From contig CM059431.1 of the NCBI GenBank assembly GCA_030390025.1, forward strand, positions 137,146,001-137,210,000: a stretch of 64,000 nt of DNA, in the 5' to 3' direction. The notes under the pieces were generated by a model. The model saw nothing but the letters and a program-made list of their open reading frames with translations, was not told the origin of the DNA and made no database searches. Positions 10,250 to 64,000 of this stretch are shown one piece after another (within the stretch, counting starts at the first letter, position 1; each line of letters opens with the position of its first letter). A program made the position numbers and the translations under genes. The DNA is from Squalus acanthias (Eukaryota).

Positions 10250-11174
10250 GAAATGTCTTATGTTGATAAGAAATGTTAACTATTGGTTTGCCAAGTACAA
10301 ACGCTGATGGTGATCATCATCACACTAAAACATATGTGGGACTAAAAAAAAGACATCCCACCTCACAAATAAAACTCTACCTGTCCGATCCAGGAAAAGG
10401 ACCCAAATGTAAATGAACTAGAAGTAATTGAGTCATGAAATGTATTAAATAACGATGTGCGTTTTGAAATTGTTAATTGAAATCGAAAGTGTTAAGCAAG
10501 AGCTTGAATCTGTCAACTAGATTATGTGAAGGGAGATATTCACAATTAATAGACAACATGGTCGGAGAATTAGTAAAGGATGTGGCAGTACAGACTAGAA
10601 AACAGGAACCAAGTGCTGAGTAAGATAGGTAACATAAGGAGAATCAGTTTAAATCGCAAATAAAGCGAGAGCTGACAGGATAGTTAGGAAATAGAGCCAC
10701 GGCAAGATTAACAGGAGTAAACAGAATAGATATAGAAAGTATGTGGGAACACGATGAGGTAATGAAGAGGCAATTAAAAAGATTATTGGCAAACAATGAG
10801 GCTAACCAGAATCAAGGCCTTACTAGAGGCATCGTGTGTAGCCTCTCTGTGACATTTGTGATGAATGTAGTCCAGAAGGAACTGGACAATATACAGGGTC
10901 ATCAAATCCCTTTGTTTATTCATGAGGACAACTGAGAAAATGGTTTACAGGAACCACGGCATAGACTATGATGTCATACAGCAAATGGGAATGGCGTTTT
11001 TGTCCCCTAGGATCGGGAAATAAATGAAGATATTATGTCAGTGCGATTGGTCTTGCCTTTGTTAAGGAAAAATGGAAATGAAACAAAACCTTTGAAGGTG
11101 TATAGGGTAGAATCGATGGGAATGGTGGAAGACTCTGAGTTAGGTCCGATCCATAAACAGTATGAGGAATATCC
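10250..11174 (+). pseudogene. env: Envelope/fusion glycoprotein pseudogene, 5' part (short surface part, KSQIKR cleavage site, fusion peptide, heptad repeat)
   Basis: Frame reads LNLSTRLCEGRYSQLIDNMVGELVKDV...KSQIKR/ELTG*LGNRATARLTGVNRIDIESMWEHDEVMKRQLKRLL... then VRLVLPLL..KVYRVESMG..HKQYEEYP, with stops and frameshifts. Confidence 0.6.
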
Positions 11175-11175
11175 C

Positions 11176-11724
11176 GTGGTAAGGGGGGCCATTCAAGTGG
11201 GGGGAGTAAAAAGAAATGTTGTAGTGGTAGGGGATAGTATCATTAGGGGGATAGATAGGGTTCTTTGCAGCCAAGAGCGAGAGTCCCGAAGGCTGTGTTG
11301 CCTGCCCGGTGCCAGGGTTAAGGACATCTCCTCTGGGCTGGAGAGAAACTTGGAGTGGGAGGGGGAGGATCCAGTTGTCGTGGTCCATGTTGGTACCAAT
11401 GACATAGATAGGACAAGGAAAGAGGTTCTGCTGAGGGAGTTTGAGCAGCTAGGGGCCAAATTAAAAAGCAGAACCTCGAGGGTAATAATCTCTGGATTAC
11501 TACCTGAGCCACGAGCAAATTTGGCTCGGGTAAATAAAATCAGGGAGTTGAATGCGTGGCTCAAAGACTGGTGTGGGAAAAATGGGTTTTGCTTCTTGGG
11601 ACACTGGCACCAGTACTGGGGCAGGAGAGAGCTGTTCCGTTGGGACGGACTTCACTTGGCCAGTGCTGGGACTAGTGTCCTGGCGAATCGAATAACTAGG
11701 GCTGTGGAGAGGGCTTTAAACTAA
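11176..11724 (+). CDS. CR1 ORF1p C-terminal SGNH/GDSL esterase domain (5'-truncated)
   Basis: VVVGDSIIRG, CLPGARV, VHVGTND and DGLHL motifs. Confidence 0.9.
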   Translation: MVRGAIQVGGVKRNVVVVGDSIIRGIDRVLCSQERESRRLCCLPGARVKDISSGLERNLEWEGEDPVVVVHVGTNDIDRTRKEVLLREFEQLGAKLKSRTSRVIISGLLPEPRANLARVNKIRELNAWLKDWCGKNGFCFLGHWHQYWGRRELFRWDGLHLASAGTSVLANRITRAVERALN

Positions 11725-11762
11725 TTAGTGGGGGGGAGGTTTCAAGAGAGCAAAAAATAAAA

Positions 11763-14714
11763 ATGACAACAGAGAGGGTCATAGACATAGGTAGCAGTAG
11801 GGGAATCACAAATCAGAGCGTGGCAGGAAGGGACAGAGTGTGTGGAGTAAAAGGTAAACTGGTAAAAAGTGAAAAAGCAGGAACTAAGTGCCACAAAGCA
11901 TATTTGAAAGTTCTCTATCTGAATGCACGTAGCATTCGTAACAAAATAGACGAGTTAATGGCACAAATAACTACATATGGTTATGATATTGTGGCCATTA
12001 CAGAAACATGGCTGCAGGGTGACAATGCCTGGGAATTAAACATACCAGGTTATTTAACGATCAGGAAGGACAGGCAGGAAGGAAGGGGAGGTGGGGTGGC
12101 TATGTTAATAAAGGAAGGAATCACTGTAATACAGAGTAATGATATTGGGTCAAAAAATCATGATAATGAAACAGTTTGGGTGGAGATAAGGAATAATAAG
12201 GGGAAAAAAACATTAGTGGGCGTAGTCTATAGGCCTCCGAACAGTTGCAACTCTATTGGACGGAGTATCAATCAGGAAATAGTTGAGGCATGTAATAAGG
12301 GAACATCTATAATTATGGGGGATTTTAACTATCATATTAATTGGACAAATCAAATGGGGCAGGGCTGCCTTGAGGATGAGTTCATTGAGTGTATTAGGGA
12401 TGGGTTTCTTGAGCAGTATGTAACTGAACCGACCAGGGGGCAAGCAACCTTAGATCTGGTCCTGTGTAACGAGACAGGATTAATTAAAAATGTCCTAGTA
12501 AAGGATCCCCTTGGAATGAGTGACCATAACATGGTTGAATTCCATATTCAATTAGAGGGTGAGAAGGTTGGATCTCAAACAAGCGTGCTAAGCTTGAATA
12601 AAGGAGACTATGAAGGTATGCGAGCGGAATTGAGTAGAGTGGATTGGGAAAATAGATTAAAGGGTAAGACGACACATGATCAGTGGTGTACATTCAAGGA
12701 GTTATTTTACAACTTCCAAAAAAAATATATTCCACTGAAAAGAAAAGGGTGTAAAAGAAAGGACAGTCATCCGTGGCTAAGTAAAGAAATTAAGGATAGT
12801 ATTCGACTAAAAACAAGGGCATATAAGGTAGCGAAATCTAGTGGGAGGACAGAGGATTGGGAAAACTTTAAAAGGCAGCAAAAAATAACAAAAAGATTGA
12901 TTAAGAAAGGGAAGATAGATTATGAAAGTAAATTAGCAAAAAATATAAAAACAGATAGTAAGAGTTTTTATAGTTATATAAAAAGAAAAAGGGTGGCTAA
13001 AGTAAATGTTGGTCCCTTAGAGGATGAGACCGGGAAATTAATGGTGGGAAATATGGAGATGGCAAAAACACTGAATGAATATTTTGTATCAGTCTTTACA
13101 GTAGAGGACACTAAGAATATCCCAACACTGGACAAACAGGGGGCTATAGGGGGAGAGGAGCTAAACACGATCAAAATCACTAAGGAAGCGGTACTCGGTA
13201 AAATAATGGGACTCAAGGCGGATAAATCACCTGGACCTGATGGCTTACATCCTAGAGTCTTGAAGGAAGTGGCGGTAGGGATTGTAGATGCATTGGTAAT
13301 AATTTTTCAAAACTCCCTGGATTCCGCTAAGGTCCCGGCAGACTGGAAAACTGCTAATGTAACACCCTTATTTAAAAAGGGCAGTAGACAGAAGGCTGGT
13401 AACTATAGACTGGTTAGCCTAACATCTGTGGTAGGTAAAATTTTGGAGTCCATTATTAAGGAAACAGTAACAGGACATTTGGATAATCATAATTTAATAG
13501 GACAAAGTCAGCATGGTTTTACGAAGGGGAAGTCATGTTTGACAAATTTGCTGGAGTTCTTTGAGGAAGTAACATATAGAGTGGATAAAGGGGAACCAGT
13601 GGACGTAGTGTATTTAGACTTCCAAAAGGCATTTGACAAGGTGCCACACAAAAGATTATTGCTTAAGGTAAAAAATCACGGGATTGGGGGTAATATTCTG
13701 GCATGGATAGAGGATTGGCTATCTAACAGAAAGCAAAGAGTTGGGATAAATGGTTCATTCTCAGACTGGCAATCAGTAACTAGTGGTGTTCCACAGGGGT
13801 CAGTGCTGGGTCCCCAACTCTTCACAATCTATATTAACGATTTGGAGGAAGGGACCAAGTGTAACATATCAAAATTTGCAGATGATACAAAGATGGGAGG
13901 GAAAGTAGTGAGTGAGGAGGACATAAAAAACCTGCAAGGGGACATAGACAGGCTAAGTAAGTGGGCAGAGATTTGGCAGATGGAATACAACACTGGAAAG
14001 TGTGAGGTGATGCACTTTGGCAGGAAAAATCCTAGAGCAATTTATTATCTTAATGGCAAGAAACTGGAGAGTACTGAAGTGCAAAGGGATCTGGGGGTCC
14101 TGGTGCACGAAACTCAAAAGGTTAGTATGCAGGTGCAGCAAGTGATTAAGAAGGCAAATGGAATGTTGGCTTTCATTGCTAGGGGGATAGAATATAAAAA
14201 TAGGGAGGTATTGCTTCAGTTGTACAAGGTATTGGTGAGACCGCACCTGGAATACTGCATACAGTTTTGGTGTCCTTACTTAAGGAAAGACATCCTTGCT
14301 CTCGAGGCAGTGCAAAAAAGGTTCACTCGGTTAATCCCGGGGATGAGGGGGTGGTCATATGAGGAGAGGTTGGGTAGATTGGGACTCTACTCATTGGAGT
14401 TCAGAAGAATGAGAGGCGATCTTATTGAAACATATAAGATTGTGAAGGGGTTGGATCGGGTGGATGCGGGGAGGATGTTCCCGATGACGGGTGAGACGAG
14501 AACTAGGGGACATAGTCTTAGAATAAGGGGCTGCTCTTTCAAAACTGAGATGAGGAGGAACTACTTCACTCAGAGGGTGGTAGGTCCATGGAATATGCTG
14601 CCACAAAAAGCTGTAGAAGCTACAACATTAATTAAATTTAAAACAGAAATAGACAGTTTCCTAGAAGTAAAGGGCATTAAGGGTTACGGGGAGCGGGCAG
14701 GAATTTGGACATGA
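11763..14714 (+). CDS. CR1 ORF2p, APE endonuclease plus reverse transcriptase, 983 aa
   Basis: YLNARS, ITETW, YRPP, GDFN and SDH endonuclease motifs; [25 protein letters not shown] and KFADDTK RT motifs; no stops. Confidence 0.97.
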   Translation: MTTERVIDIGSSRGITNQSVAGRDRVCGVKGKLVKSEKAGTKCHKAYLKVLYLNARSIRNKIDELMAQITTYGYDIVAITETWLQGDNAWELNIPGYLTIRKDRQEGRGGGVAMLIKEGITVIQSNDIGSKNHDNETVWVEIRNNKGKKTLVGVVYRPPNSCNSIGRSINQEIVEACNKGTSIIMGDFNYHINWTNQMGQGCLEDEFIECIRDGFLEQYVTEPTRGQATLDLVLCNETGLIKNVLVKDPLGMSDHNMVEFHIQLEGEKVGSQTSVLSLNKGDYEGMRAELSRVDWENRLKGKTTHDQWCTFKELFYNFQKKYIPLKRKGCKRKDSHPWLSKEIKDSIRLKTRAYKVAKSSGRTEDWENFKRQQKITKRLIKKGKIDYESKLAKNIKTDSKSFYSYIKRKRVAKVNVGPLEDETGKLMVGNMEMAKTLNEYFVSVFTVEDTKNIPTLDKQGAIGGEELNTIKITKEAVLGKIMGLKADKSPGPDGLHPRVLKEVAVGIVDALVIIFQNSLDSAKVPADWKTANVTPLFKKGSRQKAGNYRLVSLTSVVGKILESIIKETVTGHLDNHNLIGQSQHGFTKGKSCLTNLLEFFEEVTYRVDKGEPVDVVYLDFQKAFDKVPHKRLLLKVKNHGIGGNILAWIEDWLSNRKQRVGINGSFSDWQSVTSGVPQGSVLGPQLFTIYINDLEEGTKCNISKFADDTKMGGKVVSEEDIKNLQGDIDRLSKWAEIWQMEYNTGKCEVMHFGRKNPRAIYYLNGKKLESTEVQRDLGVLVHETQKVSMQVQQVIKKANGMLAFIARGIEYKNREVLLQLYKVLVRPHLEYCIQFWCPYLRKDILALEAVQKRFTRLIPGMRGWSYEERLGRLGLYSLEFRRMRGDLIETYKIVKGLDRVDAGRMFPMTGETRTRGHSLRIRGCSFKTEMRRNYFTQRVVGPWNMLPQKAVEATTLIKFKTEIDSFLEVKGIKGYGERAGIWT

Positions 14715-14950
14715 GTCTAGGTTCGGATCGGTCATGGCCCTGTGGGTAGTGGAGCGGGCCCAGGGACTGTGTAGCCTGATTCTGCTCCTATTTCGTGTGT
14801 GCAATTCTGTTAGATGCAGGAGATGGTTCTGTGATAGATAGTAGATTGGCGGTTAGGATCAGATCAGCCATGATCTTATTGAATGGCGGAGCAGGCTCGA
14901 GGGGCCGATTGGCCTACTCCTGCTCCTATTTCTTATGTTCTTATGTTCTT

Positions 14951-15737
14951 ATATCTGATTAAGAAGGGAGGGACTTGGATAGCACCATACTACAACGTTA
15001 TACTCTGAAAGGGACAGCATGGGTTTGTAGATGTGACGTAGTCCATCAACATACTGTTCCAGCTTATGGGTTCACCCTCGACAAAGAATCACCAAAATGC
15101 CATATTGGAATAAGTAAATGGGGGCGAAGACCAAACTAAAATTGTTTATAAAGGAAAATGATTATATTGTGTGACTACTACGGCCACTTATATGATTGTG
15201 GGTTCTAGCAAATGCCCCATAGTATAACATCAGTTTTGTTTGATTCCAACGAGAAATACGCATATCGGTGCTAAAACGTTGGTGCTGGTACAGCATTATA
15301 AAGTTAGTAATCTGCAGGTGTAACTGCCTCTGGAGGATGAAGCCATTCGAGCCATTCCTCAAATGGAACATTACATACGTTCCCTGTCTCTGGCTTTAAA
15401 GGGCATAATTGAATGAACTCGGATATGCCAGAAACACATAGTGCAAATGATACAGACAAATAGAGAGACAGAACAGGCAATCCCGAGACTTGGGAATCAT
15501 GAATGTTGGGAAGTAGTATCGAGCTTGGAAATACATCCTTGGGTTAGATTGTTCCAGATGGGATTGTTGATAGCAGAGATAAAAGCTTTAGGGATTCTGG
15601 TCATTGCGTTCTGCTGTGTAAGGAAGTCGATAAGGGACATAGAAAATAATGAAAGGTTAGAAGTTAGCAAGGGCACTAAGAGGAAGCCAGGATTAGTAAA
15701 GACAAAGAATGATATAAAACACTTTGCCAAGAGGTAA
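14951..15737 (+). pseudogene. env: Envelope/fusion glycoprotein pseudogene, 3' part (Cys-rich region, TM helix, basic tail)
   Basis: Continues as YLIKKGGTWIAP, then across frameshifts GTAWVCRCDVV..C, IVYKGK*LYCVTT..C..FCLIP..IG and WVRLFQMGLLIAEIKALGILVIAFCCVRK. Confidence 0.6.
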
Positions 15738-15761
15738 AGTAACCGATAAAAAAGTGGGACA

Positions 15762-16322
15762 TGCTGGCATATAGACCCCGGTTAATTCAGCTTCTGAAAG
15801 GAGATCATGTTCAATTAATTCGATAGAGGGAAAATGCGTTTTGTATCATTAGAGAGAGAGAGAGAAAGAGACAGAGAGACTGATTTCACTTAGCAACAGC
15901 TGGTGTTTTGCGACCAACCAGCCTTCGATATACTTAATAGAATGTTTAGATTAGAAATATTATGTTAGGATAAGGAAAGTCCAGAACGAGTGGTTTATGC
16001 TCACCATCGCAAGGCCACGATGTTTGTCGGTGTGTTATTGATGTAGACTTGTGTCTCTGGACTATACAGTAGCCAGAGACGTCCATGTTCGGCAATGGCT
16101 GCAGAGGTTTGATAATAAAACAGTGTATAAATGTAAGCTTTTTCCTTTGTATGGGAGCATGGAGGTACCCATGATTAGGTACGCGTGCTCTATCTGCGAC
16201 TAGATTCCGCATGTAAACTGCTTTCTATGCTGAAGTTAAAGAATGAAATGATTCTAACCAGAAGACTGAATTCGTTACAACTCAAGTGAACAAACTGAAG
16301 GGAACAGGTTCTGCCCTTATAC
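15762..16322 (+). mobile_element. Candidate 3' LTR
   Basis: Starts with TG just after the polypurine tract that follows the env stop and contains TATAAAT at about 16126. No 5' partner is found in the window. Confidence 0.5.
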
Positions 16323-16585
16323 TTTTCGGCTACCTTGGACTGCACAAACTATAACAGTATTCCGCCAAGCTGAAGCCACGCTCGACATATTTATACGACA
16401 ATCTAATCCTTTTGGCCTCCAACTTTCCCCATATGCATTGTTTTTTGTACTTGAATGCGTGGGACAATCTTTATCTTTTACTGTGGTGTGTAGTGTCTTA
16501 GCAACTAGTCCCATATCGAGGTATGACAATGTCTTGGACTGGGTGTTTATTATTCTCAGTCTTCGCGTTTCCAAATTGTCTTTTA

Positions 16586-16932
16586 AAACTACAGGTATAC
16601 CCAATAGTACTATTTATCACAAAGATGTGGAAAACTGTAATATATTAAAATACAGGTATATCCAATCGTAATATTTATCAAAAAGACGTGGAAGATTGGA
16701 ATATATTAATACTACAGGTGTACCCAATTGTAATATGAATCACTACAGACATAGGCAATTGCAATATATTAAAACATCAGGTATATCCAATAGTAATATT
16801 TATCACAAAAATGTGGAAGATTGTAATATATTAAAACTACAGCTGTATCCAATTGTAATATTGATCACCACAGACATGGGAAATCGTAATATAATAAATC
16901 TACAGGTATATCCAATTGTAATATTGATCACC
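16586..16932. repeat. Degenerate ~62-bp tandem repeat, about 5.5 copies
   Basis: AAAACTACAGGTATATCCAAT.GTAATATT unit starts near 16586, 16647, 16708, 16771, 16833 and 16896. Confidence 0.85.
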
Positions 16933-17109
16933 CTGCTAACAAGGGCCCTGAATGAAACGCGTTAGACAAACTGTGTTTATTTGAGGGTTTTCGTGAGTGA
17001 GCGAGCCTGGGGAATAGTTTGAAACATTCTGATACCTGGGGCTGTTGGGTCGTCTTAACTTACCAGGTTACCTGTCCCGGACAAGCCCAGTTTCACTCTC
17101 GTCCCTGAC

Positions 17110-20417: not shown

Positions 20418-22420
20418 CAGTGAGATCAGGCAGTGTGTAACCCGGGGAGGATGGGACCATTGAGATCAACACGGTGACATAATGGTTAGCACTGGTGCCT
20501 CACAGCGCCAGGGACCCGGGGTTCGAATCTGACCTCGGGTGACTGTCTGTGTGCAGTTTGCACATTCTCCCCGTGTCTGCGTGGGTTTCCTCCGGGTGCT
20601 CCGGTTTCCTCCCACAGTCCAAAAATGTGCGGGTTAGGTTGATTTGGCTATGATAAATTGACCCTTAGTGTTAGGGGGGGATTAAATATGTGGGGTTATG
20701 GGGATAGGATGGGATATGTTAGGGGGAATTAAATACGTGGGGTTACGGGGGTAGGGTGGGATATGTGTACTGTGGGGATTAAAGCAGGGACAGGGTACTG
20801 GATTTGGATGATCAGCCATGATCGTATTGAATGGTGGAGCAGGCTCGACGGACCGAATGGCCTGCTCCTGCTCCTAGATTCTATGTTTCTATGTTTCTAT
20901 CAGACTGTGTGTAACCCGGGGAGGATGCACCAGGTGAGATCAGACAGTGTGTAATACGGGGAGGATGGGCCCAGTGAGATCAGACAGTGTGTAACCCGGG
21001 GAGGATGGGCCCAGTGAGATCAGACAGTGTGTATCCCGGGGAGGATGGGCCCAGTGAGATCAGACCGTGTGTAACCCGGGGAGGATTTCCCAGTGAGATC
21101 AGGAAGTGTGTAACACGGGGAGGATGGGCCCAGTGAGATCTCACAGGGTGTAACCCGGGGAGGATGGCCCAGTGAGATCAGAGAATGTGTAACCCGGGGA
21201 GGATGGGCCCAGTGAGATCAGACAGTGTGTAACCCGGGGAGGATGGCCCACTGAGATCAGACAATGTGTAATCCGTGGAGGATGGGCCCAGTGAGATCAG
21301 ACAGTATATAACCCGGGGAGGAGGGGCTCTGTGAGATCAGACAGTGTGTAACCCGGGGAGGATGGGCCCAGTGACATCAGACGGTGTGTCACCCGGAGAG
21401 ATGGGCCCCGTGAGATCAGACACGGTGTAACACGGGGAGGATGGGCCAAGTGAGATCAGACAATGTGTAACGCGGGGAGGATGGCCCAGTGAGATCAGAC
21501 AGTGTGTAACCCGGGGAGGATGGGCCCAGTGAGATCAGACAGTGTGTAACCCGGGGAGGATGGCCCACTGAGATCAGACAATGTGTAATCCGTGGAGGAT
21601 GGGCCCAGTGAGATCAGACAGTATATAACCCGGGGAGGAGGGGCTCTGTGAGATCAGACAGTGTGTAACCCGGGGAGGATGGGCCCAGTGACATCAGACG
21701 GTGTGTCACCCGGAGAGATGGGCCCCGTGAGATCAGACACGGTGTAACACGGGGAGGATGGGCCAAGTGAGATCAGACAATGTGTAACGCGGGGAGGATG
21801 GGCCCAGTGAGATGAGGCAGTGTGTAACCCGGCGAGGATGGGCCCAGTGAGATCAGAGAGTGTATAACCCAGGGAGGGTGGGCCTAGTGAGATCAGACAG
21901 TTTGTAACCCGCGGACGATGGGCCTAATGAGATCAGACAGTTTGTAACCCGGGGAGGGTAGGCCTAGTGAGATCAGACAATGTGTAACCCGGGGAGGATG
22001 GGCCGAGTGAGATCAGACGGTGTGTCACCCGGGGAGGATGGGCGCCATGAGAGCATACACGGTGTAACTTTGGGAGGATGGGCCAAGTGAGATCAGACAG
22101 TGTGTAACCCGGGGAGGATGGGCCCTTTGAGATGAAACAGTGTGTAACCCGGGGAGGATGGGCCCAGTTTGATCAGACAGTGTGTAACCCGGGGAGCATG
22201 GGCTTAGTGTGAACAGACAGTGTATAACCCGGGGAGGATGGGCCCAGTGAGATGAGACAGTTTGTAACCCGAGGAGGGTAGGCCCAGTGAGATCAGGCTG
22301 TGTGTAACCAGTGGAGGATGGGCCCAGTGAGGTCAGGCTGTGTGTAACCAGGGGAGAATGGGCCCTGTGAGACCAGATAGTGTGTCACCTGTGGAGGATG
22401 GGCCCTGTGAGATCAGGCAG
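20418..22420. repeat. 40-bp minisatellite, about 39 copies (CAGTGTGTAACCCGGGGAGGATGGGCCCAGTGAGATCAGA), interrupted by a SINE after the first unit
   Basis: 40-bp period; a ~317-bp internal duplication is visible (about 21185-21490 versus 21505-21810). Confidence 0.97.
20469..20898 (+). mobile_element. HE1/V-SINE-type tRNA-derived SINE with CR1 tail
   Basis: TGGTTAGCACTGGTGCCTCACAGCGCCAGGGACCCGG..GTTCGAATC head, V-domain GGGTTTCCTCCGGGTGCTCCGGTTTCCTCCCACA, and (CTATGTTT)n tail. Confidence 0.92.
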
Positions 22421-26371: not shown

Positions 26372-27826
26372 CATTTAAGGGAGGAAATAGCAGAGACTCT
26401 AACAATCTTTTTCCAATCCTCTCTGGCTACAGGTGTGGTGCCAGAGGACTGGAGGACTGCTAACGTGGTACCGTTGTTTAAAAACGGAGAAAGGGATAGA
26501 CCGAGTAATTAAAGGCCAGTCAGCCGAAACTCGGTGGTGGGAAAATTATTGGAAAGCATTCTGAAGGACAGGATAAATCTTCATTTAGAAAGACACGGAT
26601 TAATCAAGGATAGTCAGTATGGATTTGTTAAGGGAAGGTCGTGTCTGACTAAATTGTTGGATTTTTTGTGGAGGTAACAAGGAGGGTCGATGAGGGTTGT
26701 GCGTTTGATGTAGTGTATATGGATTTTAGCAGGACTTTTGATAAGGTCCCACATGGCAGACTGGTCACGAAGTTAAAAGCCCATGATATGCTAAGCAAAG
26801 TGGCAAGTTGGATCCAAAATTTGCTCAGAAGGAGGAAGCAAAGGGTTATGGTCGATGGGTGTTTTTTGTGACTGGAAGGCTTTTTCCAGTGGGGTTCTGC
26901 AGGGCTCAGTACTGCGTCGCTTGCTTTTTGTGATACATATCAATAATTGAGATTGAATGTCCGGGGTATGATTAAGAAGTTTGCAGATGATACAAAAATT
27001 GGCCTTGCGGTGGATAATGAAGAAGAAAGCTGCAGACTGCAGGAAGATATCAATGGACTGGTCAGGTGGGCAGACCAGTGACACATGGAATTAAAACCGG
27101 TCAAGTGCGCGCTAATGCATTTGGGGAGGGCGAACAAGGCAAGAGAATACACAATAAATGGTAGGACACTGATAAATGCAGGGAACACGAGGGACCTTGG
27201 AGTGCATGTCCACAGATCCCAGAAGTTAGCAGGGCAGTTAGATATGGTGGTTAAGAAAGCATACTGGATACTTGCCTTTATTAGCTGAGGCATAGAATAT
27301 AAGAGCAGGGATGTTTTGCTTGAACTGTATACAACGCTAATTAGGCCACAGCTAGAGTACTGCGTGCAGTTCTGATCACCACATTACAGGAAGGATGTGA
27401 TTGTACTGTAGAGGGTACAGAGGAGATTTACTAGGATGTTGCCTGGACTGGAGAATTTTAGCTATGAGGAAAAATTGGAGAGGCTAGATAGAGTGGATAG
27501 GAAGGAACTAATTCCCTTAGCAGAAGGGTCAATAACCATGGGACATAGATTTAAAGTAATTGGTCGGAAGTTTAGAGGGATTTGAGAAGAATTGTATTCA
27601 CCCAGAGGGTGGTGGGGATCTGGAGCTCACTGCCTGAAAGGGTTGTAGAGGCAGAGACCCTCATCACATTTTAAAAGGACTTGGACATGCACTTGAAGTG
27701 CCATAACCTACAAGGCTACGGACCAAGTGCTGGAAAGTGGGATTAGGGGGGATAGCTCTTCGTCGGTCGGCATGGACAAGCTGGGCCAAATGGCCTCCTT
27801 TTGTGCTGTAAATGTCTATGATTCTA
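26372..27826 (+). mobile_element. CR1 (RT to 3' tail) nested in the minus-strand CR1
   Basis: VVYMDFSRTFDKVPH and KFADDTK motifs; ends ...CTATGATTCTATG. Confidence 0.88.
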
Positions 27827-39340: not shown

Positions 39341-39663
39341 GCAGCCTCGCCTCGTCAATGGAGGTGCATGATGTGCCGATCTCAGCACAGAGATTTGAAT
39401 CCACCGCCATTTGCTAGACCCTGACTTTGAACCTGTCAAATCTGACATTGAAACAATCAAATCTGCCTCTGGTGCTACAGTAATCGGTTACTCTGCACCA
39501 GAAGCAGCATCATCGGTTCAATATTAGCCTACGAGAGGGATAGAAGGCTAAAAGTTAACCCTTTGCTGGAGATTTGCTATCTGCGGTCGGAGTGCTAGGA
39601 CAGTAAGCACACGAGGATCAGGTTTATGGGATGGACAATGGAGGCCATGACATGGAAAAGGAT

Positions 39664-40598
39664 AAATGTGAGAAGTCGCACAACACCAGGTTATAGTCCA
39701 ACAGCTTTATTTGAAATCACAAGCTTTCGGAGCGCTGCTCCTTCGTCAGGTGAAGTGAAGAGATGTATATAGGCACAGCATATATAGTCAGAGAACACTG
39801 CCAGATGATTACAGTTAATCTTTCCAACTGCCCTTTACCACACCTCGGCAGAGAGATAATCACGGCAATCACAGGTGTGGATGGTGTCCAAACAGGTCAG
39901 TCAGGAAATCGGCGAGACCATGCAGACACTGCGACAACATATGAACGGACACCGTGCAACACTCGCCAGGCAGGAGTGTTCCCTCCCAGTCGGGGAACAC
40001 TTCAGCATTCAAGGACATTCAGCCTCCGATGTTCGGGTAAGCGTTCTCCAAGGCGGCCTTCGAGGCACACGACAACGCAAAATCGTCGAGCAGAAACTGA
40101 TAGCCAAGTTCCGCACTCATGAGGACGGCCTCAACCGGGATCTTGGGTTCATGTCACGCTACATGTAACCCCATCTGACGTAGAGTCTACCAGACTCGAG
40201 TCGTCGTTGGCTTGTTCTCTCTACAGAGATGCGACCGGACCTGCTGTGATTTCCAGCAATAAAAGTTTTTAGTTTTCCATACAGATCCCAGCATCTGCCA
40301 TATTGTCATGGATGTAATGTTTTCCTGACTGACCTGTTTGGACACCATCCACACCTTTGATTGCCGTGATTATCTCTCTTCCGAGGTGTGATAAAGGGCA
40401 GTTGGAAAGATTAACTGTAATCATCTGGCAGTGTTCTCTGACTATATATGCTGTGCCTATATGCATCTCTTCACTTCACCTGACGAAGGAGCAGCGCTCC
40501 GAAAGCTTGTGATTTCAAAAAAATCTGTTGGACTATAACCTGGTGTTGTGCGACTTCTCACATTTTTCCACCCCAGTCCAATACCGGCATCTCCACAG
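39664..40598 (+). mobile_element. 5'-truncated Penelope-like element with inverted pLTR arms, GIY-YIG endonuclease C-terminus and 13-bp TSD CATGGAAAAGGAT
   Basis: Arms 39664-39908 and 40321-40565 are near-perfect inverted repeats. 39909-40168 encodes IGETMQTLRQHMNGH..VGEHF..EQKLIAKFRTHEDGLNRDLG. TSD copies at 39651-39663 and 40599-40611. Confidence 0.92.
40476..40512 (+). ncRNA. Minimal hammerhead ribozyme motif in the Penelope pLTR (mirror copy on the minus strand at 39717-39753)
   Basis: TCAC-CTGACGA-A-GGAGC(AGC)GCTCC-GAAA-GCTT-GTGA: core boxes, stem II, palindromic helix III (AAGCTT) and stem I TCAC/GTGA. Confidence 0.65.
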
Positions 40599-49769: not shown

Positions 49770-52700
49770 TTATCAATCCTCACAGGGGATTTTGCTAGTG
49801 CTGTTGGGAAGGATTTAAACTAGTTTGTCAGGGGGCTGGGAACTAAGTGTGTTCCCTGAATGGAGAGAAACAAAGCTGGAAGTGCAAGTTAGAAAAGTAG
49901 TCAGCAAAACTAGTAGGGAGTACAAACAAAGGCCAACAGTATAGTGGGTCAAAGTGCAAAAAAAATGTAAACAGGAAAAGTTGAAGGCACTATATCTAAA
50001 TGCACGTAGCATTCGCAACAAGGTGGATGAATTAATGGCACCAAGAGAGGTAAATGGGCATGATGTAATTGCCATTACAGAGACATTGTTGCAGGGTAAA
50101 CAAAGCTGGGAACTGAATGTTACAGGGCACTTAACATTTAGGAAGGACAGACAAAAAGGAAAAGGAGGTGGCATATCGCTGTTAGTAAGGGGTGTGATCG
50201 GTACGGTAGAGATAAACGATCTTGGCTTGGCAGATAGTGATGTAGAACTGGAATCAGTTTGGGTGGAGCTAAGAAACAGCAAAGGGTGGAAAACATTGGT
50301 GGGAGTTGTGTATAGGTCACCAAACAGTAATGGTAATTTAGGGCACAGTATCAATCAAGAGATTCGACGTGCATGCAACAAGGGCAATACGGTAATCATG
50401 GGGGACTTTAATCTACATATTGGACTGGGAAACTCAAATTACCACGAATGGTGTGGAGGTCGATTTCTTGGAAGCATGCGAGATTGTTTCCTGGATCAGT
50501 ATGTGGAGGAACCAACCAGGGAACAGGCTATTCTGGATCTGGTACTGTGTAATGAGAAAGGGATAATCAATAATCTTGTGGTAAAGGAGCCTTTAGGGAC
50601 AAGTGACCATAATATGATTGAATTTTACATTAAGTTTGAGAGTGATGTAGTTCAATCTGAATCTAAGGTCTTCAATCTAAACAGAGGAAAAAACAAGGGT
50701 ATGAGAGACATGTTGACCATGGTAGACTGGGAGACTACACGAAAAGTTATGAAGGTGGACATAACATTCAAGGAAATAATGCATAATTTGCAACAAACAT
50801 ATATTCCACTAGGGCATAAAAACCCAAAAGGAAAAGTGATCCAATCATGGCATCAAAAGAAATTAAAGCTAGTATTAAGTGAAAGGAGAAAGCTTATAAA
50901 TTTGCCAGAAAAAGCAGTCAGCCTGAGAATTGGGTTATTTTTAGAAATCAGCAAGAAATTGATAAAGAAAGGGGAAATGGAATATGAGCACAAACTGGCG
51001 AAAAATATTAAAACGGATTGTAAAAGCTCCGATAGGTATGTGAAAAGGAATGTAGGTCTATTACAGTCAGAGACGGGAGAATTTATAATGGGGAATGAGG
51101 AAATAGCAAGAGAAATTAAAGAAATGCTTTGTTTCTGTCTTCACGGAGCAAGACACAAAAAATCTCCCAGAAATACGAGAAAACCAAGGGTGTGACGAGA
51201 ATGAGGAACTTAAAGAAATTGTTATTAGTAAAAAATCAGTACTAGCAAAATTAATGGGACTAAAAGTCGACAAATCCCAAGGACCAATGACGTACATCCT
51301 AGGTTTTGAAAGCGGTGGCCATTGGAATAGTGGACGCTTTGGTTGTTAGCTTCCAAAAATCTGGAACGTTTCCTGCAGATTGGAGGGAAGCAAATGTAAC
51401 CCCGCTATTTAAGAAAGGAGGGAGAGAGAAAACGGGGACCTACAGACCTGTTAGCCTTACATCAGTAGTTCGGAAAATGCTGGAATCAATTATAAAGGAT
51501 GCATAAACTGGGCTCTTAGAAACTAATATTAAGATTGGGCAAAGTCAACATGGATTTATGAAAGGGGTATCCTGTTTGACAAAACTATTGGAGTTTTTTG
51601 AGGATGTAACTAGTGGAGTAGACAAAGGGGAACTGGTAGATGTGGTGTATCTGGATTTTCAGAAGGCCTTCGATAAGGTCCCAAACAAGAGGTTGGTGAA
51701 CAAAATTAGGGCACATGGAATTGGGGGTAATATACTAGCATGGATCGAGAATTGGTTAACAGACAGAAAACAAAGAGTATGGGTTAAACGGGTGTTTTTT
51801 TCAGGATGGCAGGCTGTGACTAGTGGGATACCGCAAGGACCGATGCTTGGGACCCAGCTATTCACAATATATATCAATGATTTGGATGAGGGGACAAAAT
51901 GTAACATTTCCAAATTTGCTGATGATACAAAGCTAAGTGGCAGTGTCAGTTTCGTAGAGGATGTGAAGAGGCTTCAAGGAGATCTCGACAGGCTCAGTAA
52001 GTAGGCGAAAAAATGGCAGATGGAATATAATGTGGATAAATGTGAAGTTATCCACTTGGGCAGAAAAAACAGAAAGGCAGAGTATTTCCTAAATGTTGCA
52101 AAATTGGGGAATGCAGATGCTCAAAGGGACCTGGGTGTCCTTGTACATGAGTCACTGAAAGTGAATGTGCAGGTGCAGCAAGGCAGTAAGAAGACAAATG
52201 GTATGCTGGCCTTCATTACAAGAGGATTTGAATACAGGTGTAAAGAAGTCTTACTCCAATTATATAGGGCGTTGGTGAGACCACAAATGGAGTACTGTGT
52301 TCAATTTTGGTCACCTTACCTAAGGAAGGATATATTTGCCATAGAGAGAGGGCAACGAAGGTTCACGAGATTCATTCCTGGGATGAGGGACTGTCGTATG
52401 AGAAGAGATTAAGTAAACTAGGCCTGTATTCTCTTGAATTCAGAAGAATGAGAGGGGATCTCATTGAAGCAAACAAAATTATTACAGGGCTTGATAGGAT
52501 GATGCTGGAAGAATGTTTCCCTTGGCTGGGGAGTCTAGAACCAGGTGTCACAGCCTCAAGATAAAGGGTAGACCATTCAGGACTGAGATGAGAAGAAATT
52601 TCTTCACACAGAGGGTGGTGAATCTTTGGAATTCTCTATCCCAGAGGAGTGTTGAGGCTCAATCATTGGGTATATTCAAAACAGAAGTCGATAGATTTCT

Positions 52701-56555: not shown

Positions 56556-57009
56556 CCATTAACTCTAACATTCCTTTTTCTCCAAAACAATCGAATGAAA
56601 TTTCAAAGTAGTTTATCGACTTGCTTCCTCAGCAGGTTGTGGGAGTAAATTAAGCATTCTAACCACGATGTACTGAAATAAATGTATCCATCCTCACCCA
56701 TAACACTTCGAATTAGCCCTCTGAACAAACAGTGGAAACAATCTGTAAACATTTATTTCATCATAAGCTTTCAGAAACTGAAGACTTTCATCAACTCCTC
56801 ACCTAATCCATTGAACTCGCATAGCATGAGCCCTAAATTCTCAAATCCCCTCTAACAGGAGTTCCACATCCCAGCGAACCTGCTGAGCAGTTTTTCAAAT
56901 AATTTTATTTCCTTGATATAATTGAGTTTCCAAAATTATACACAACTGGGTAAATTACCTGCCCCTGTGCTCTTGCTGTGGAATGTCACGCCTCCTTTTT
57001 CCTCCAGTT

Positions 57010-57456
57010 AAACATAGAAACATAGAAACATAGAAACATAGAATCTAGGAGCAGGAGTAGGCCATTCGGCCCGTCGAGCCTGCTCCGCCATTCAATACGA
57101 TCATGGCTGATCATCCAAATCCAGTACCCTGTCCCTGCTTTAATCCCCACAGTACACATATCCCACCCTACCCCAGTAACCCCACGTATTTAATTCCCCC
57201 TAACATATCCCATCTTATCCCCATAACCCCACATATTTAATCCCCCCTAACACTAAGGGTCAATTTATCATAGCCAAATCAACCTAACCCACACATTTTT
57301 GGACTGTGGGAGGAAACCGGAGCACCCGGAGGAAACCCACGCAGACACGGGGAGAATGTGCAAACTCCACACAGACAGTCACCCGAGGTCAGATTCGAAC
57401 CCGGGTCTCTGGCGCTGTGAGGCACCAGTGCTAACCACTATGCCACCGTGTTGCCC
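57010..57456 (-). mobile_element. HE1/V-SINE-type SINE, full length
   Basis: Reverse complement of 20469-20898 with an (AAACATAG)n tail. Confidence 0.92.
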
Positions 57457-59254: not shown

Positions 59255-59519
59255 GTAAGAGATTAAATGGAGAATTATAAACTTTTGTTTCACTTCAGAA
59301 TCAGAATGTTTGACAACAGCCTTTTGTTTAGAGATTTTCAGAATCTGTGAATCAGAGGGTGAAAGGCTGAGGAAACGGGATTGAACGTTATTTGGTTCCG
59401 TGGTTAATCCACACAAGTTCAGCCTAGGTTAATTTTACAATTAACTCCAGTTTTTGAATTATTGCTTAATTTGCAGCTCTTGTATGCTCCAGTTAATCCA
59501 ACTGCTCATCGCCTACTTC

Positions 59520-62500
59520 TTGCAGGATCCCGATACACTGTGAAATCCCAAACACACCTAGCAGGATCCTGATACACTGTGATAGCTCATAGACACATGG
59601 CAGGATCCTGATACACTGTGAAACATCATACACACCTGTCAGGATCCAGATACAGTGTGAAACCTCATACACACCTGGCAGGATCCAGATACACTGTGAA
59701 ACCCCATATAAAACTGGCAGGATCCTGATACACTGTAAAACCCCATACAAACCTGGCAGGATCCTGACACACTGTGAAACCCCATACATACCTGTCAGGA
59801 TCCTGATAAATTGTGAAACCCCATACACACATGGCAGGATCCTGATACATTGTGAAACCCCATACACACCTGGCAGGATGCTGATACACTGAACAAACTC
59901 CATAAAAACCCGGCAGGATCCTGATACACTGGGAAACCCCATACAGATCTTGCAGGATACCTGATACACTGTGAAACCCAATACACATCTGGCAGGATCT
60001 CGATGCGCTGTGAAACCCCTTACACACCTGGCAGGAACCTGATACAGTGTGAAACCCCATACACACCAGCCACGATCCTGATACACTGTGAAACCCCATA
60101 TAAACCTGGCAGGATCCTGATATACTGTGACTCCCCATACACACCTGGCAGTATCCTGCTTTACTGTGAAACCCTATACACACCTGTCAGGATCCTGATA
60201 CACTGTGAAACATCATACACACCTGGCAGGATCCAGATACAGTGTGAAACCTCATACACACCTGGCAGGATCCAGATACACTGTGAAACTCCATATAAAA
60301 CTGGCAGGATCCTGATACAATGTGATAGCTCATAAACACCTGGTAGGTTCCTGATACACTGCGAAACATCATAAACACCTAGCAGGATACTGATAAGCTG
60401 TGAAACCCTTTACACATCTGGAAGCATCCTGACACACTGTGAAACTACAAACACACCTGGCAGGATCATGACAGACAGTGATACCCCATATACACCTGGC
60501 AGTAACCTGATACATTTTAAAACCCCATACACAGCTGGCAGGATCCTGATACACTGTGAAACCCCATACACACCTGGCAGGATCCAAATATACTGTGAAA
60601 CCCCATACACACCTGGCAGGAACCTGATACACTGTGAAAACCCATACACACCTGGCAGGATCCCGCTACACTGTGGAACCCCATACATACTAGGCAGGAT
60701 CCTGATACAGAGTGAATCCCTAAACACACCTGGCAGTATCCCGACACACTGTTGAACCCCGTACAGATGTCAGGATCATGATAAACTGTGAAGCCCCATA
60801 CACCTGGAATGTTCCTGAGACACTGTGAAAACCCATACACACCTGGAAGGATCCTGCTACACTGTGAAAACCTATACACACCTGGCAGTATCCAGATACA
60901 CTGAGAAACTCCACTCAAACCTTGCAGGATCCTGATACATTGTGAAACCCCAAACACACCTGGCAGAATCCTGACACATTCTGAAACTCCACTCAAACCT
61001 TGCAGGATCCTGATAAACTGTGAGTCACCAATACGCTCCCGGCAGGTTCCTGACACGCTGTGAAACTCCGTACTCACCTGGCCAGATCCTGATACACTGT
61101 GAAACCCCATACACACAAGGCAGGATCCTAATACACTGTGAAACCACATGCACAACTGGCAGGTTCCTGATACACACAGAAACCCCATACACAGCTGGCA
61201 TGTTCCTGATACACGGTGGAAACCCCTTACACGACTGGCAGGATCCTGACAAACTATGTAACCCAATACACAATTGGCGGATTCTGATACACTGTGTTAC
61301 TCCATACACACCTGGCAGGACCCTGATATACTGTGAAACTCCATACACACCTGGCAGGATCCTGATACACTGTGAAACTCCATACACACCTGGCAGGATC
61401 CTGATAAACAGTGAAACCCCATACACACCTGGCAGGATCATGATAAACTGTCAAACCCCATACACACCTGACAGGATTCTAATAAAATCTGAAACCCTAT
61501 ACACACCTGGCATAACCCACATACACTGTGAAACCCTATACACACCTGGCAGGATCCAGATACACTGTGAAACCCCATACAAAGTTGGCAGGATCCTGAT
61601 AGACTGTGAAACCCCATACAAACCTGCCAGGATCCTGACACACTGTGTAACCCCAGACACACCTGTCAGGATCCTGATACACTGTGAAACTCCTTACACA
61701 CCTGGCAGGATCCTGATACACTGTGAAACTCCATAAACACCTGGCAGTATCCTGTCACATTTCGAAACTCCATACACACATGGCAGGATACTGATACACT
61801 GTGAAACCCCTAACGCACCTGGCAGGATCCTGATACACTGTGAAACCCCATACACACCTGGCAGGATCATGATAAACTGTCAAACCCCATACACACCTGG
61901 CAGGATTCTAATAAAATCTGAAACCCTATACACACCTGGCATAACCCACATACACTGTGAAACCCTATACACACCTGGCAGGATCCAGATACACTGTGAA
62001 ACTCCATACAAAGTTGGCAGGATCCTGATAGACTGTGAAACCCCATACAAACCTGCCAGGATCCTGACACACTGTCGAACCCCGTACAGATGTCAGGATC
62101 ATGATAAACAGTGAAGCCCCATACACCTGGAATGTTCCTGAGACACTGTGAAAACCCATACACACCTGGAAGGATCCTGCTACACTGTGAAAACCTATAC
62201 ACACCTGGCAGCATCCAGATACACTGAGAAACTCCACTCAAACCTTGCAGGATCCTGATACATTGTGAAACCCCAAACACACCTGGCAGAATCCTGACAC
62301 ATTCTGAAACTCCACTCAAACCTTGCAGGATCCTGATAAACTGTGAGTCACCAATACGCTCCCGGCAGGTTCCTGACACGCTGTGAAACTCCGTACTCAC
62401 CTGGCCAGATCCTGATACACTGTGAAACCCCATACACACAAGGCAGGATCCTAATACACTGTGAAACCACATGCACAACTGGCAGGTTCCTGATACACAC

Positions 62501-64000
62501 AGAAACCCCATACACAGCTGGCATGTTCCTGATACACGGTGGAAACCCCTTACACGACTGGGAGCATCCAGATACACTGTGAAACTCCATACACACCTGG
62601 CAGGATCCTGACACACTATGTAACCCAATACACAATTGGCGGATTCTGATACACTGTGTTACTCCATACACACCTGGCAGGACCCTGATATACTGTGAAA
62701 CTCCATACACACCTGGCAGGATCCTGATACACTGTGAAACTCCATACACACCTGGCAGGATCCTGATAAACAGTGAAACCCCATACACACCTGGCAGGAT
62801 CATGATAAACTGTCAAACCCCATACACACCTGGCAGGATTCTAATAAAATCTGAAACCCTATACACACCTGGCATAACCCACATACACTGTGAAACCCTA
62901 TACACACCTGGTAGGATCCAGATACACTGTGAAACCCCATACAAAGTTGGCAGGATCCTGATAGACTGTGAAACCCCATACAAACCTGCCAGGATCCTGA
63001 CACACTGTGTAACCCCAGACACACCTGTCAGGATCCTGATACACTGTGAAACTCCTTACACACCTGGCAGGATCCTGATACACTGTGAAACTCCATAAAC
63101 ACCGGGCAGTATCCTGTCACATTTCGAAACTCCATACACACATGGCAGGATACTGATACACTGTGAAACCCCTAACGCACCGGCAGGATCCTGATACACT
63201 GTGAAACCCCATACACACCTGGTAGGATCATGATAAACTGTCAAACCCCATACACACCTGGCAGGATTCTAATAAAATCTGAAACCCTATACACACCTGG
63301 CATAACCCACATACACTGTGAAACCCTATACACACCTGGCAGGATCCAGATACACTGTGAAACTCCATACAAAGTTGGCAGGATCCTGATAGACTGTGAA
63401 ACCCCATACAAACCTGCCAGGATCCTGACACACTGTGTAACCCCAGACACACCTGTCAGGATCTTGATACACTGTGAAACTCCTTACACACCTGGCAGGA
63501 TCCTGATACACTGTGAAACTCCATAAACACCTGGCAGTATCCTGTCACATTTCGAAACTCCATACACACATGGCAGGATACTGATACACTGTGAAACCCC
63601 TAACGCACCTGGCAGGATCCTGATACACTGTGAAACCCCATACACACCTGGCAGGATCCTGATACAGTTTGATACACCATACAGAACTGGCAGATTCCTG
63701 ATATACTGGGGAACCCCATAGACACCTGGTAGGATCCAGATACTCTGCAAAACCCCATACACACCTGGTAGGTTCCTGATGTACTGCGAAACATCATAAA
63801 CTCCTGGCAGGATCCTGATACACTGTGAAAGCAAACACACATCTGGCAGGTTCCTGATAGACTGTGAAAGCACACACACTCCTGGCAGGATCCAGATACA
63901 CAGTGAAACCCCATATACACCTGGCAGGTATCAGATATACTGTGTAAACCCATACACACGTGACATGATTCTGAAACTCTGTGACACCCCATTCACACTT
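59520..64000. repeat. 39-bp intronic minisatellite, more than 110 copies, running off the window, with higher-order blocks
   Basis: Unit GGCAGGATCCTGATACACTGTGAAACCCCATACACACCT. Blocks 60745-61500 and 62068-62860 repeat, and ~428-bp blocks start at 61435, 62797 and 63225. Confidence 0.98.

Follow-up and report, generated by a model that had tools for sequence, protein, structure and literature searches.

Fossil 3' end of a putative endogenous retrovirus with a probable F-type envelope gene in Squalus acanthias

Known F-type envelopes and a fossil envelope gene in Squalus acanthias

Envelope (Env) proteins resembling the fusion glycoprotein (F) of paramyxoviruses and pneumoviruses have been described from more than one group of retroelements. 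Lokiretroviruses (Loki), a lineage defined by reverse transcriptase (RT) phylogeny together with a pol gene carrying tether and RNase H (PMC7947760) and marked also by a CGIN1-like integrase, have Envs with a signal peptide, an R-X-K-R-type cleavage site, a fusion peptide, a coiled coil and a transmembrane (TM) helix, encoded beside the 3' long terminal repeat (LTR). The foamy virus Env is also F-like, with a paramyxovirus/pneumovirus F core and a binding module (PMC11468914), and F-like Envs are widespread among errantiviruses (PMC13524379). Since foamy viruses and errantiviruses share it, the F layout does not by itself name a lineage. Here we describe a decayed env gene from Squalus acanthias, located in a stretch of 64,000 nt (assembly GCA_030390025.1, contig CM059431.1, 137,146,001-137,210,000, forward strand), called the window below. 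The locus was studied at window positions 10,250-16,322, later widened to about 9590-16941. It is probably the fossil 3' end, comprising an upstream stretch, env, a polypurine tract (PPT) and an LTR, of a multi-copy endogenous retrovirus (ERV) family of cartilaginous fish, with an F-type Env outside the described Loki Envs and a putative class III pol.

The env gene lies in two halves on the plus strand, at 10225-11174 (start codon assumed) and 14951-15737, which were translated separately, with X at stops, for protein searches. With the 5' half, phmmer against 1.84 billion representatives returned a single match (E 6e-24) and no protein of Loki Env length. The match was a protein of Chiloscyllium punctatum (P0003, 739 aa) annotated as hypothetical, and the 3' half, absent from the phmmer query, also matches it (BLASTP E 4e-34). 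A search with P0003 retrieved a protein of Scyliorhinus torazame (P0004; two matches among 8,000 candidates scored, one of them the query), and a third, from Heterodontus francisci (P0005), was also found. These three intact proteins (GCC29952.1, XP_072333160.1 and XP_067889054.1) are uncharacterized. Searches of Pfam, PDB sequences and two word-indexed homolog collections with the env halves gave no matches, nor did scans of viral and metagenome contigs yield a relative.

In frameshift-aware alignments, the 5' half corresponds from 10382 onwards to residues 198-499 of P0004 (97/253 identical, 38%) and the 3' half to residues 502-732 (90/229, 39%). The alignment scores were 306 and 448, respectively, whereas shuffled sequences (30 for each half) reached at most 50. 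The best path crosses four frameshifts and five stops in the 5' half, keeping all three cysteines, and two frameshifts and four stops in the 3' half, keeping 6 of 10. Together this amounts to six frameshifts and nine stops, with 9 of the 13 cysteines of the aligned P0004 spans retained. The env copy in the window is dead.

The interrupting LINE and the architecture of the element

As the initial annotation had proposed, env is split by a long interspersed nuclear element (LINE) at 11175-14950 on the plus strand. The insert is 5'-truncated in open reading frame (ORF) 1, the remaining piece of which encodes a GDSL esterase (Pfam Lipase_GDSL_2, E 8e-11). Its ORF2 is intact, with 1004 stop-free codons (RVT_1, E 3e-30; Exo_endo_phos, E 4e-13), and the 3' end is an 8-nt tandem tail. 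Esterase ORF1, endonuclease-RT ORF2 and a short tandem 3' tail are all features of CR1/L2 elements, to which the insert presumably belongs by its domain layout. Further LINE copies inside the window are 66-73% alike to it over the coding parts. A search for a target-site duplication of the LINE found no clean one, only a 5-nt match not abutting both edges. The LINE is younger than the env that it interrupts. Its 3' end is partly duplicated (about 14700-14800 and 14857-14950), a place where contigs from other copies lack about 155 nt.

Parts of 14951-16330 were found in 20 sequencing runs (7 studies, 8 organisms; best share 0.29); the listed holders include no RNA run, which bears neither way on expression. 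Contigs from four runs (X1, X7, X11 and X16) were aligned to 9300-16500 at 80% likeness. In all four, contigs that skip the LINE link 11174, or 11171, directly to 14951: two contigs in X1, one in X7 (and one at 11171), three in X11 and one in X16 (and one at 11171). The shorter flank at the joint measures at least 31 letters in X1, X7 and X11, and 21-25 in X16. The best record, an 837-nt contig of X11, spans 10768-11173 and 14951-15337. The proposal had been staked on the halves being contiguous in other copies, and contiguous they are. It had also held that deletion of 11175-14950 restores the reading frame; the halves do join in other copies, but not exactly so: at some joints a few letters stand between the two sides, and therefore the window copy lost a little target sequence. 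Many divergent contigs span 9669-11174 and 14951-16474, and therefore a multi-copy family common to several organisms is indicated.

The rebuilt gene was compared part by part with its intact homologs, which have the class I layout of basic site, fusion peptide, heptads and C-terminal TM helix. In the window the positions of these parts are kept, and the site and the peptide are degenerate. The basic site, QIKR at 10657-10668 (plus strand), aligns with RKRR 287-290 of P0004 but lacks the first arginine and is not a canonical furin motif. The segment read earlier as fusion-peptide-like occupies the expected position, yet the 19 residues after QIKR are not hydrophobic (mean hydropathy -0.43, compared with 0.66 in P0004). 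The heptad region is likewise in place, except that in the first heptad region about 40 residues have no counterpart, leaving an alignment gap against P0003 and P0004 at 10789-10800 (plus strand). The distance from cleavage site to RIP motif is about 80 residues in the window family, against about 120 in P0004 and Loki-Bsp. At least five contigs from three runs cross position ~10795 at the same length, without the extra heptad codons, so the shortening looks like a family trait. The family Env may therefore have been fusion-defective, and the family may have spread with help in trans.

The C-terminal portion matched expectation more closely. About 430 codons follow QIKR by coordinates, as had been predicted, and the 3' half encodes the predicted Cys-rich region, TM helix (hydropathy peak at about 15564-15620) and basic tail, along with a membrane-proximal helix and the stop. 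The N-terminal part of about 140 aa follows from a start at 10225, but that start is assumed, and the intact relatives have 275-290 residues before the cleavage site, with about 200 further residues that include an immunoglobulin (Ig)-like module. The "short F2" is uncertain because these relatives carry this Ig-like head.

If the biology of F is a guide, furin cleavage of the active Env would have separated a head/F2 part from F1, which stays anchored in the membrane and whose new N-terminus would insert in the target membrane while the heptads zipped into a hairpin. The window copy decayed through stops and frameshifts, with the CR1/L2 LINE inserting later; the 5' part of the element is absent from the window.

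On the 3' side, the env stop at 15737 is followed by a PPT-like run at 15747-15761 (plus strand; 12/15 purines) and, directly after it, by the TG at 15762 of the putative 3' LTR, so that the order env-PPT-LTR is present and no room remains for accessory genes 3' of env. The run and the TG had both been predicted, but the run is not unusual alone: 3 of 150 nearby TG sites are preceded by a more purine-rich one, and it gains support from its position. The LTR-like block (15762-16941, plus strand, end inferred) had been placed within 16322; it runs further, as family contigs reach at least 16474 and perhaps the whole extends to 16941. It contains TATAAA at 16126 and AATAAA at 16114 and 16893. Summed contig depth, which is not a copy number, is raised in bins 15566-15806 and 16048-16288 in all four runs. 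No poly(A) tail was found 3' of env, and no second LTR copy in the window. A 63-nt tandem array of 5.6 copies (16583-16931, plus strand; Tandem Repeats Finder score 411) possibly lies within the LTR.

On the 5' side, the element includes a stretch at 9590-10224 (plus strand), possibly an accessory ORF, the tail of pol or an Env head that has diverged. Contigs cover 9669-10137 and continue into env, placing it in the same element, and a repeat fragment of high depth marks its 5' limit. This stretch had no match in Pfam, and its resemblance to the head of the intact proteins was not significant. An Ig-like head near 10010-10105, suggested by resemblance to the eye, is possible but not significant, its score being reached by 12, 42 and 20 of 60 shuffles; in a retest of the upstream DNA, 24-87 of 150 shuffles reached the score in local and 82-140 of 150 in anchored alignment. 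The frame 9598-10131 (plus strand) has only 2 stops in 178 codons and is itself a possible accessory ORF or pol tail.

Assignment to the F type and lineage of the element

The Env is very likely F-type by homology, an assignment that is not a structural demonstration. When residues 200-735 of P0004 were searched in the ESM Atlas, named clusters only, the top cluster was "Envelope protein" (0.95, 214 shared features; Fusion_gly in 21% and Baculo_F in 11% of members) and the second was Fusion glycoprotein F0 (0.94), 82% of whose members carry PF00523. Further rows were Gypsy/Baculo_F clusters of arthropods or rotifers (0.93-0.94), given with no alignment. A search with the whole protein retrieved a sole cluster, unnamed and chordate (0.82). 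Compared by eye, basic-residue-IP, LP..YK-type and Cys-cluster motifs follow in the same order in the shark proteins and in Loki Envs, which supports a remote, putative F-type homology. Like paramyxovirus and pneumovirus F0, the shark envelope has a cysteine on either side of the cleavage site, which may correspond to the F2-F1 link; unlike F0, it sits in an LTR element and has a longer N-terminal part in its intact relatives. The proposal of an F-like Env in an LTR element thus finds support in the Atlas scores of 0.94-0.95 and in colinear 38-39% identity to intact proteins.

Several results weigh against this reading. HMMER, Pfam and PDB sequence searches returned no F family (PF00523 or PF12259) for the halves or for the intact proteins. 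The full-length AlphaFold2 model (5 rows) had a predicted local distance difference test (pLDDT) score of 31.6, and with it Foldseek gave no match at E<=0.001, F0 entries appearing only at ranks 10, 12, 25 and 41. Because Pfam and PDB gave no matches and the model was poor, the F assignment draws on one language-model search with part of a homolog, made with a tool of unmeasured error rates, on layout and on motifs compared by eye. Pol, primer-binding site, 5' LTR and target-site duplication are all absent from the window. The LTR end is inferred, with no unique terminal match: a CA end at 16941 agrees with the LTR start in 6 of 8 letters, a score that at least 5 others among 136 sites also reach.

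Remnants of gag, RT or integrase were not found among 139 plus-strand stop-free stretches, a scan in which short or broken ones could be missed. It covered 62 stretches (at least 40 aa) in 1-10400 and 77 (at least 70 aa) in 16900-59400, without the minus strand and the tandem blocks 1430-2400 and 59400-64000. Four matches reached E<=0.01, two of them in a LINE at 49945-52001 and one unrelated and weak. The remaining one, a weak RT match at 26653-26868 (plus strand, E 0.002), is probably a LINE fragment.

For the pol lineage, class III, either snakehead-retrovirus (SnRV)-like (clade Huo, defined by a Pol phylogeny with SnRV and ERV-L) or foamy-like, appears most likely rather than Loki, though this is putative. 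Class III ERVs are abundant in chondrichthyans, with 2,843 RT loci in 6 genomes (PMC11089739), an SnRV-like lineage is known from the elephant shark (PMC4422223), and foamy-like elements occur in sharks (PMC5512871, PMC10699275). The foamy Env resembles the present one as a retroviral Env with an F core and an added binding module. It differs in that a large receptor-binding domain is inserted ahead of its furin site; the shark proteins have an Ig-like module of about 125 residues near the N-terminus. The window also differs from foamy viruses in the lack of accessory genes between env and LTR.

It is unlikely that the element is a true lokiretrovirus with a diverged Env, which would be the first from cartilaginous fish. 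The shark Env shares with Loki Envs the parts listed at the outset and the order of the IP, LP..Y and Cys motifs; the spacing from cleavage site to RIP is about 123 in Loki-Bsp and 120 in P0004; env is followed directly by a PPT and a long LTR-like block; and the N-terminal part, assumed to have 148 codons, comes close in length to the ~120 of Loki Envs. An R-X-K-R site and similarity to F of Mononegavirales, which mark Loki Envs, are found in the intact homologs (by layout and in the Atlas) and are not unique to Loki. Against Loki membership, the screen by Wang and Han (PMC7947760) found Loki in none of six chondrichthyan genomes; the species screened included C. punctatum and S. torazame (Fig. 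S1). In addition, six full-length Loki Envs compared by eye (among 8 of 23 entries in that source) have an N-terminal motif PGP..G..L..GLL.T.C and a fusion peptide starting F(L/I)(G/A), both absent from the shark proteins, which for their part carry extra cysteines and an Ig-like head; moreover, the phmmer match was to a shark protein only. The initial annotation had spoken of a lokiretrovirus-like or otherwise unusual enveloped LTR element. The second, wider wording fits best; with no pol in the window, no Loki in the six genomes and differing Env motifs, the first suits the layout without establishing membership.

An env-bearing Ty3/gypsy or BEL/Pao retrotransposon, in place of a retrovirus, is improbable. 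Its Gypsy/Baculo_F clusters tie with F0 in the Atlas, and the errantiviruses, in which F-type env is widespread (PMC13524379), likewise combine such an env, with furin site and fusion peptide, with an LTR retroelement. However, those Atlas rows are arthropod or rotifer clusters given without alignments, errantiviruses are described from invertebrates only, and PMC13524379 reports no intact homologous elements in vertebrates. A retroposed or duplicated copy of the intact shark gene is very improbable, as is the insertion of an F gene from a negative-strand RNA virus: although the protein relatives are all single shark proteins with host annotation, a paramyxovirus-like endogenous viral element is reported in a shark (PMC11089739) and the window holds one LTR-like block, the 38-39% identity falls well short of the 85-88% that the three shark proteins share, divergent contigs run over env and the sequences upstream and downstream, depth rises at the LTR-like block, and poly(A) is lacking.

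Intact shark relatives and other features of the window

A single dead copy, the fossil strengthens the case that F-type envelopes occur in several retroelement lines and are no peculiarity of Loki; in this instance the hosts are cartilaginous fish, in which the Loki screen found none. What it chiefly offers is a connection to three unannotated shark proteins resembling captured env. These come from three galeomorph orders (bamboo shark, catshark and horn shark), are 739-754 aa long and occur as one sequence per species, each on one contig. They align without gaps except at the N-terminal start, and pairwise identity is 85-88% overall, 89-93% in the F1 ectodomain, 82-83% in the head and 66-75% in the TM and tail. 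Each has a hydrophobic N-terminus, RKRR or RRRR at 287-290 (272-275 in P0003), a G/A-rich segment, heptads, one strong TM peak and 464 residues after the cleavage site. They are colinear homologs of the window env over the whole F core and TM helix, and differ from it in being intact, in the complete basic site, in about 40 more heptad residues and in the Ig-like head, which was not detected in the window.

The Ig-like head gave a weak Pfam match to Ig_3 in two of the three members (best E 0.014). Its model had a pLDDT of 47, and Foldseek rows were mostly Ig domains or antibody chains, none at E<=0.001; re-examination of these matches against antibody V domains gave a VIA Z of 8.6 and a root-mean-square deviation of 2.7 over 103 residues.

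With a single sequence per species and 85-88% identity, the three proteins are candidates for a captured host gene under selection. It is about an even chance that a retrovirus lineage of cartilaginous fish with an Ig-headed F-type Env lost one env to a galeomorph ancestor, and that horn sharks, catsharks and bamboo sharks have kept it intact as a host gene, either a syncytin-like fusogen of great age or a factor that blocks receptors; the window would then hold a fossil of a related viral family. Alternatively, the proteins may be recent copies of a virus that moves horizontally, in genomes that evolve slowly. Vertebrates have often co-opted env: PMC8922424 cites 177 such events, and a foamy element co-opted in geckos is reported (PMC6669660). 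Our literature searches found no description of this shark gene; two key works, on shark foamy ERVs and co-opted retroviral genes, may cover it. If the capture is real, an ancient viral fusogen of the F type, with an Ig-like head, persists in sharks as a host gene and would be a candidate for a role in cell fusion or in defence against viruses, in animals whose modes of reproduction vary.

Elsewhere in the window, a long 39-nt tandem array occupies 59400-64000, with about 90 overlapping registers, roughly 80% identity and long open frames. Another tandem array, at 1480-2410, is built of a short unit, judged by eye at about 30 nt, and leaves frames open on both strands. A repeat of about 400 nt is present in two copies, 94-98% identical and in opposite orientation, at 20516-20922 and 57000-57405. 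An inverted repeat of 249 nt (39660-39908 and 40321-40569), 97% complementary and with arms 412 nt apart, resembles a miniature inverted-repeat transposable element.

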